Source: Escherichia coli (GTDB lineage: Bacteria; Pseudomonadota; Gammaproteobacteria; Enterobacterales; Enterobacteriaceae). From it: a DNA stretch of 64,000 bases. The stretch's first letter is position 1. Every line of letters starts with the position of its first letter. Below, piece by piece: positions 60,385 to 60,988 of this stretch. Under the pieces are notes generated by a model. The model had not been told where the DNA came from, searched no databases, and worked only from the letters and a program-made list of their open reading frames with translations. Made by a program: the position numbers and the translations under genes. The stretch lies in the NCBI RefSeq assembly GCF_003334785.1, contig NZ_QOWV01000001.1. One strand, 5' to 3'.

Positions 60385-60988
60385 TGTAGTAATCTCAAAC
60401 TTATATTGGGGTGGTTTGTTGAGGTAATAATAGAGCCTTAAATTCAGTTGTGCAATAGCCAGGAATGTAAGGAATTCAAAATTGTTCTTTATTTTGTGCC
60501 GCCAATAAATATCTTTTCATAAAATTAGCCAGAAAAGACGCGGCATATAGCCCTATTTACACCGATGATTTCGCAGCACGTGAGGTTAAAACTTCCTGAT
60601 TCATGTCACATTTTATGGGGAGATTATCGTAGGCTGACGACCTTTCAGTCTTCTGTATTAGTTGTGTTTACGAGAATTCCCTATTAAGCGAATGATGAAA
60701 AGTAGAACAGTCGCAATAAGAGCATGGACTTAGTATTGCACTATCTCCTGGAGGTCAACAGAGGGCTATTACTTGCGCAACAGGTTAAAGATTGTGAATA
60801 GTTACCAGCAGTCATTTACCCGCTTATAACAAGCGAGGCAGTTGTAATGATAGCTCAGAAGGATTATGCAAGGCTTCGTAAGGGAGAACGCATATACCCA
60901 CTTCTGTGCATACTGTTGAGCTGAAAAACTGACGAATTATGATAAACTCCAGCCAACTTTATTTCATATCATTGAGGGCCTGTGGCTG

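Follow-up and report, generated by a model that had tools for sequence, protein, structure and literature searches.

The hns/tdk intergenic region of Escherichia coli: divergent promoters, auto-regulatory DNA and short conserved footprints

Enterobacteria silence foreign DNA chiefly through H-NS, so the level at which hns itself is expressed matters. In the 64,000-nucleotide stretch of E. coli DNA analysed here (the window), hns and its divergent neighbour tdk are separated by a long stretch of AT-rich DNA, raising the question of whether that DNA serves only the two flanking promoters or also holds an unannotated RNA or small protein. The region 60385-60988 is, with high confidence, the known hns/tdk divergent promoter and auto-regulatory region, made of protein-binding DNA, and we found no hidden gene in it. 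Its function is already known, and the idea of a small RNA (sRNA) or leader is unsupported. Our comparative map is a modest addition, consisting of a few short constrained blocks and a distal element locked in position relative to hns. That element is the one item worth bench work; otherwise the analysis adds no hidden gene.

The intergenic region and its two promoters

As hns extends up to 60384 and tdk begins at 60989, positions 60385-60988 make up the entire hns/tdk intergenic region of 604 bp. Coordinates were converted from E. coli K-12 MG1655 as window position = NC_000913.3 position - 1232538. The features referred to below, with the basis for each in brackets, are:

59971-60384, minus strand: hns (annotation)
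60385-60420, minus strand: hns 5' UTR, 36 nt (start site 60420, K-12 1292958)
60427-60455, minus strand: hns core sigma-70 promoter (read from the sequence; conserved)
60456-60495, minus strand: near-invariant upstream promoter block, -36 to -75 (conservation profile)
60489-60545, no strand: AT-rich segment with the palindrome TTTATTTTGTGCCGCCAATAAAT and the predicted curvature peak at 60529 (sequence, FITBAR and wedge model)
60594-60614, no strand: CRP binding site ttCCTGAttcatgTCACAttt, centre 60604, -184 from the hns start (in vitro Footprint-seq, preprint)
60639-60661, no strand: distal conserved element GACCTTTCAGTCTTCTGTATTAG (conservation island)
60662-60935, no strand: weakly conserved AT-rich spacer with no mapped transcript (conservation mostly 0.15-0.35)
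60940-60948, plus strand: putative tdk extended -10 element TGaTAAACT (conserved pattern TATGnTAnAnT)
60954-60988, plus strand: tdk 5' UTR, 35 nt (SMRT-Cappable-seq operon table, b1238 start at K-12 1293492, forward)
60989-61606, plus strand: tdk (annotation)

An earlier note, made from the sequence alone, had described a 604-bp AT-rich gap between hns and tdk, and it was exact on both counts. The GC content is 39.6% (0.396) vs 50.6% (0.506) for the 64-kb window, in which just 1.4% of 604-bp windows are as AT-rich, and the AT-rich run that the note quoted is present, beginning at 60468. Set against intergenic DNA, the composition is ordinary and moderately AT-rich: the length-weighted GC of the other 46 annotated intergenic regions is 44.3% (0.443), and 7 of the 31 intergenic regions of at least 100 bp, this one counted in, have a GC of 0.396 or lower. 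The unusual property of the region is its length, which ranks second of 47 annotated intergenic regions in the window (median 157 bp) and is the greatest among the divergent ones.

The region was found in 5423 of 5426 complete E. coli genomes at 95-100% identity, and among the E. coli genomes listed PGAP places no feature within it, save one IS1 insertion. Thirteen of the 5471 places matching the region sit on plasmid-labelled records, and some genomes have up to three copies; the plasmid-labelled copies could be F-prime-like captures or assembly artefacts. Downstream of tdk, the window carries an annotated ISZ remnant with an insZ transposase pseudogene (61888-62867, minus strand), where GC reaches 0.59-0.65 around 62300-62700.

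The start of hns transcription is placed at 60420 by genome-wide start-site profiling (1292181 in U00096.2 coordinates, 36-nt UTR; Kim 2012 supplement), and SMRT-Cappable-seq maps the full-length transcript to K-12 1292458-1292958. Six nucleotides upstream of this start lies a sigma-70 promoter, TTGCAC-17-TATTAT, with its -35 hexamer at 60450-60455, a 17-bp spacer, its -10 hexamer at 60427-60432, the discriminator TACCTC (60421-60426) and an A as the starting nucleotide; a consensus promoter scan picked the overlapping TGCACA-16-TATTAT. This anatomy agrees with the published description of the promoter (17-bp spacer, C at -13, C at -4/-3/-1, ATP as starting nucleotide; PMC7601328), including its GC-rich discriminator. 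The leader is ~97-100% identical over 68 Enterobacteriaceae loci. Conservation continues upstream of the -35 hexamer at 0.74-0.98 to ~60484, falls off by 60495 and is 0.3-0.6 beyond. This upstream block is placed where an UP element or activator site usually lies. The adjoining AT-rich segment is weakly conserved between genera, outside Escherichia. It includes the near-palindrome TTTATTTTGTGCCGCCAATAAAT (60489-60511, ~-70 to -90 from the hns start), which contains a CCAAT box and is predicted by FITBAR as a weak NagC operator (U00096.2 position 1292271).

On the tdk side, a putative extended -10 promoter lies 6 nt upstream of the mapped start at 60954. Its conserved bases are the TG plus the T, A and T of the hexamer, and in Citrobacter and Salmonella the element reads TGnTACAAT (hexamer TACAAT). 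The leader that follows has a Shine-Dalgarno sequence, GAGGG, at 60974-60978, and both TTTATTTC and TGAGGG are conserved in an alignment of Escherichia, Citrobacter and Salmonella.

Several further observations concern these transcripts. Opposite the hns -10 element lies AATAAT (60426-60431, plus strand), and opposite the tdk -10 element TATCAT (60939-60944, minus strand), so that -10-like hexamers on the opposite strand overlap the -10 element of both promoters, a geometry typical of bidirectional promoters; no divergent start sites from these hexamers appear in the transcript data sets searched. Term-seq has a strong 3' end at 60358 on the minus strand (K-12 1292896), which lies 26 nt inside the hns ORF and scores 50384 vs 188656 at the hns terminator. 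It implies that a 63-nt 5' fragment of hns mRNA is abundant; no hairpin or U-tract is evident there, and the end could arise by pausing or by processing that depends on an sRNA or RNase. At the other end of the gene, convergent galU and hns have a perfect hairpin between them, AAAATCCCGCCAGCGGCGGGATTTT (59923-59947), which resembles a bidirectional terminator, with the hns 3' end just past it (K-12 1292475 / 1292458). The same hairpin yields several sub-threshold Rfam matches, such as frnS at 27.4 bits vs a gathering score of 60, which we take to be terminator look-alikes.

Search for a further RNA or small protein

The earlier note had seen room in this gap for an unannotated small RNA or leader. 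Transcripts mapped genome-wide under the conditions of the original studies gave no extra transcription start site (TSS) or 3' end between hns and tdk in the tables of Kim 2012, Yan 2018 and Adams 2021. In the SMRT-Cappable-seq supplement, K-12 1292900-1293599 has no TSS or termination site besides the hns and tdk starts, and in the Term-seq supplement K-12 1292900-1293499 has no 3' ends, two matches to the string '12933' being score values. Some 533 bp (60421-60953) are consequently devoid of a transcript in the data sets searched, which map only the hns and tdk mRNAs as far as they reach; transcripts that are rare or made only under particular conditions might have escaped them. At 36 and 35 nt, the two 5' UTRs are also too short, against a length of ~80 nt or more, for either gene to be under a long regulatory leader.

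Searches of the sequence itself gave a similar picture. Rfam at E<=10 over 59800-61200 returned nothing inside the region, its only hits being sub-threshold matches on the galU/hns terminator and within genes. The earlier note was right that no ORF of at least 60 aa lies inside: the biggest internal ORF has 40 aa (60565-60687, plus strand), and a 100-aa ORF antisense to hns (60125-60427) extends 43 nt into the region. There are eight ORFs of 23-40 aa, of which seven are interrupted in sister Escherichia lineages, and none of hns, tdk and K-12 1292900-1293299 is represented in the Ribo-seq small-ORF supplement.

An sRNA or long regulatory leader transcribed from inside the region would find some encouragement in the length of the gap (604 bp vs a median of 157 bp), in consensus promoter-like hexamers on the minus strand (60967-60939), in a terminator-like hairpin at 60631-60651 and in the Shimada 2014 entry of ATGAAA-17-TATCAT as a predicted 'hns' promoter, whose hexamer lies opposite the tdk -10 element. 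But promoter-like consensus matches are at shuffle level (6 vs 4.5 +/- 1.8 in shuffles), and the hairpin is not conserved, its stem being broken already in other Escherichia. The lowest fold z-score of a scan in 100-nt windows on both strands, -2.8 at 60460-60559 (plus strand), is unremarkable as the minimum of 46 windows. Outside the promoters there is no conserved block of sRNA size. With the short leaders, the three data sets free of additional start sites or 3' ends, the empty Rfam search and the small ORFs lacking conservation, we regard such an RNA as very improbable, and the room that the earlier note had seen for one appears to be unoccupied. The intergenic sRNA genes of the same window, rdlA-C, rttR and narS, are likewise free of long ORFs, but they come with start sites and terminators of their own, with annotation and with Rfam models, all of which the hns/tdk region lacks. 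A small protein of fewer than 50 aa is extremely unlikely. One of the eight ORFs, of 24 aa (60448-60522, plus strand), is intact in Escherichia and several Citrobacter, but in Salmonella, Enterobacter and others it is cut to 5-15 aa or has lost its start codon, and it has neither a Shine-Dalgarno sequence nor a mapped transcript. Its conservation is explained by its overlap with the invariant hns promoter, and the remaining ORFs fail in sister lineages as described above.

H-NS auto-regulation and insertion sequences

The alternative to a hidden gene is control DNA, and for hns this is well documented. H-NS represses the promoter through AT-rich sites upstream of it, Fis activates it and CspA binds to it (PMC7601328 and other papers), and the literature also reports inhibition of the promoter by ppGpp. 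The E. coli promoter and auto-regulatory region are the subject of Falconi 1993/1996, Ueguchi 1993 and La Teana 1991, as these are cited in PMC4390576 and PMC7601328, and most of the region is included in hns reporter constructs that reach to -313 or -540. Our region is the same locus and the same sequence; the start, -10, -35, 17-bp spacer and GC-rich discriminator all match, and nothing differs in kind. To the published region we add the family-wide conservation map, the element at ~-220, and motif-like sites of other genera that are degenerate in E. coli.

The ~75 bp next to the hns start form a sequence-constrained core and upstream promoter, and the AT-rich, partly curved DNA beyond very probably serves as the base from which H-NS holds down its own expression, against the action of Fis and CspA. 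The CRP site at -184 and the position-locked distal element at ~-220 are further footprints. AT-rich DNA lies upstream of the promoter, as an H-NS auto-regulatory region calls for (GC 0.396 vs 0.506), at a level ordinary for intergenic DNA. The H-NS motif tCGATAAATT has no site with up to two mismatches in the E. coli hns/tdk region, and Lang 2007 reported no canonical H-NS site in the hns regulatory region.

The earlier note had expected curved auto-regulatory DNA upstream of hns. The auto-regulatory part agrees with the literature and gains indirect support from the insertion-sequence effects described below, and the curvature part is at most moderately supported, by a Bolshoy-type wedge model. 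In that model, curvature peaks at 20.7 degrees per turn at 60529 (-109 from the hns start), above the 99th percentile of the window, and mean curvature over the region is modest overall, in the top 8% of 604-bp windows. Among 68 orthologues, we saw a modest excess of curvature at -60 to -75 and at -150 to -195, where 23-34% of loci exceed the 95th percentile of background; the position of the K-12 peak is not conserved.

Mobile elements have repeatedly separated the hns promoter from its upstream DNA. The hns/tdk region ranks among the three targets hit most often in laboratory evolution of E. coli for fast growth on glucose, in which IS2, IS1 and IS5 inserted at -75, -112, -116 and -258 from the hns ATG; an experiment at 42 degrees C gave an insertion at -111 and a SNP at -22. 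Insertions of IS1 and IS3 in the region are associated with strong up-regulation of hns and can lower the expression of plasmid-borne resistance. On our map, the laboratory IS1 insertions (-111, -112 and -116) fall at or just past the distal edge of the upstream block, the IS2 insertion (-75) falls inside it, and the IS5 insertion (-258, ~60642) falls within the distal element. Natural counterparts exist: E. coli BE2-5, an egret isolate, carries IS1A after 60485, again inside the upstream block (locus L082, 801-1577), with a 9-bp target duplication CAAAATTGT, and Phytobacter ursingii (L025) has an IS5-family transposase between hns and the distal element (intergenic ~130-1330).

These insertions keep the core hns promoter intact and displace the upstream DNA, and their effects therefore match the prediction of relieved, upstream-dependent auto-repression. 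Read-out from an outward-facing promoter of the inserted element is a possible alternative explanation of the same effects. Taken by position, the hns-proximal half of the region (60459-60642) is a recurrent insertion-sequence target, hit by IS1, IS2, IS3 and IS5.

Conserved blocks and the distal element

With Tdk as the probe, we fetched 80 Enterobacteriaceae loci, and 78 of them have hns and tdk side by side in divergent orientation. Most intergenic regions measure 490-650 bp (median 555 over 79 loci, the K-12 reference included), and the intergenic GC stays at 0.34-0.46 even where tdk GC3 exceeds 0.6. Conserved blocks are few. The hns leader, promoter and upstream block (60385-60495, to ~-75) are nearly invariant; beyond them we found the CRP site, an island at 60639-60661, the tdk -10 element, part of the tdk leader with its Shine-Dalgarno sequence, and a few patches of 6-10 bp, such as ACAATAAG near 60715. 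The ~270-bp spacer at 60662-60935 is not alignable between genera, has indels among Escherichia, Citrobacter and Salmonella, and varies in length. Judged from these alignments, short conserved footprints are the pattern expected of regulatory DNA rather than of an RNA or protein gene.

The CRP site coincides with an in vitro CRP footprint at K-12 1293142, assigned to hns/tdk (Footprint-seq preprint). Compared with TGTGA-N6-TCACA, it reads CCTGAttcatgTCACA, with one perfect half-site, and its core GATTCAgGTCACATTTT (60598-60614) is conserved in Escherichia, Citrobacter and Salmonella but not in more distant genera.

The island at 60639-60661 reaches further across the family. Its consensus is TGGATAAATATCAaCCTTttGTATTAg, with which the E. 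coli copy agrees at 16 of 23 positions; 67 of the 79 loci match at 15 or more, and shuffled regions mostly give 12-14. The distance from the element to the hns start is confined to 208-224 bp; its modes are 210 and 221, and no locus falls at 212-216. To tdk, the distance is anywhere from 224 to 645 bp. This fixed distance to the one gene and variable distance to the other assign the element to hns. Although the two modes are one helical turn apart, they could go back to one indel in a single clade, and so are weak evidence for helical phasing. Two identities for the element were tried and rejected. The IHF consensus WATCAANNNNTTR is exact in only 4 of 78 orthologues and has no exact match in the E. 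coli region (3 mismatches), and a sigma-70 promoter on either strand would have hexamers only 14-15 bp apart, with the last base of the -10 not conserved.

A related reading, in which the element and a minus-strand TATAAT-like hexamer ~15 bp away form a second, condition-specific promoter toward hns, accounts for several of these observations: no part of the element is better conserved than TTGATA (minus strand), Enterobacter, Klebsiella, Raoultella and Kosakonia have a perfect TATAAT downstream of it, and the position is fixed relative to hns. We nevertheless consider this reading very improbable, given a hexamer spacing of just 14-15 bp (in E. coli, CTGAAA and GATAAT are 14 bp apart) and no TSS near 60614 on the minus strand in the data sets searched. 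The AT-rich and weakly conserved spacer at 60662-60935 might likewise be read as the functionless, decayed remnant of a mobile element or of horizontally acquired DNA, the more so as the region is a demonstrated insertion-sequence target and Kluyvera-type loci are longer by ~350 bp. Against this, synteny, a length of ~550 bp and a GC of ~0.40 are kept over more than 30 genera, so that any acquisition would be older than the family, and the spacer holds no annotated feature among the E. coli genomes listed; a remnant is highly improbable.

In place of these readings we put forward, tentatively and as a rather unlikely proposal, that the distal element (23-27 bp; TGGATAAATATCAaCCTTttGTATTAg) is a previously undescribed, family-wide cis-element of hns control. 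Our best guess for its protein is H-NS itself, at a nucleation or bridging site. The H-NS motif occurs within two mismatches in the left half of the element in 23 of 69 loci. A second cluster of motif-like matches lies in the hns promoter spacer; there, Citrobacter and Salmonella have GCGATAAATT, which agrees with the motif at 9/10 positions. Both sites are degenerate in E. coli K-12, where the element matches its consensus at the 16 positions given above and the promoter spacer reads GCCTTAAATT. An H-NS nucleation site at the element that bridges to the motif-like site in the promoter spacer would set the level of auto-repression.

Such an arrangement would resemble proU and bgl, which H-NS silences by nucleation and bridging (motif of Lang 2007). 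Like them, the hns promoter has AT-rich DNA beside it; in many genera two motif-like sites lie ~200 bp apart, in the promoter spacer and in the distal element; and repression is relieved once an insertion sequence displaces the upstream DNA. Unlike them, the E. coli K-12 hns region is without a motif within two mismatches, and hns is highly expressed, being damped rather than silenced; two-site bridging at hns is what we infer from the paired sites. If bridging from the distal element is true, what is maintained in the non-conserved spacer would be length and AT content, not sequence. Spacer length and AT content may themselves be under selection, but an AT-rich composition is common in intergenic DNA and so does not by itself point to selection.

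The variation in distance to tdk includes a group of long-spacer loci. Eight (L006, L027, L030, L038, L045, L048, L051 and L052), belonging to Kluyvera, Pseudocitrobacter, Citrobacter sp. Awk 4 and an Enterobacteriaceae isolate, carry ~350 bp extra on the tdk side, between the distal element and tdk, giving intergenic lengths of 879-914 bp. No ORF is common to all of them, and two, L045 and L051, have similar 56-aa ORFs on the minus strand near the hns end.
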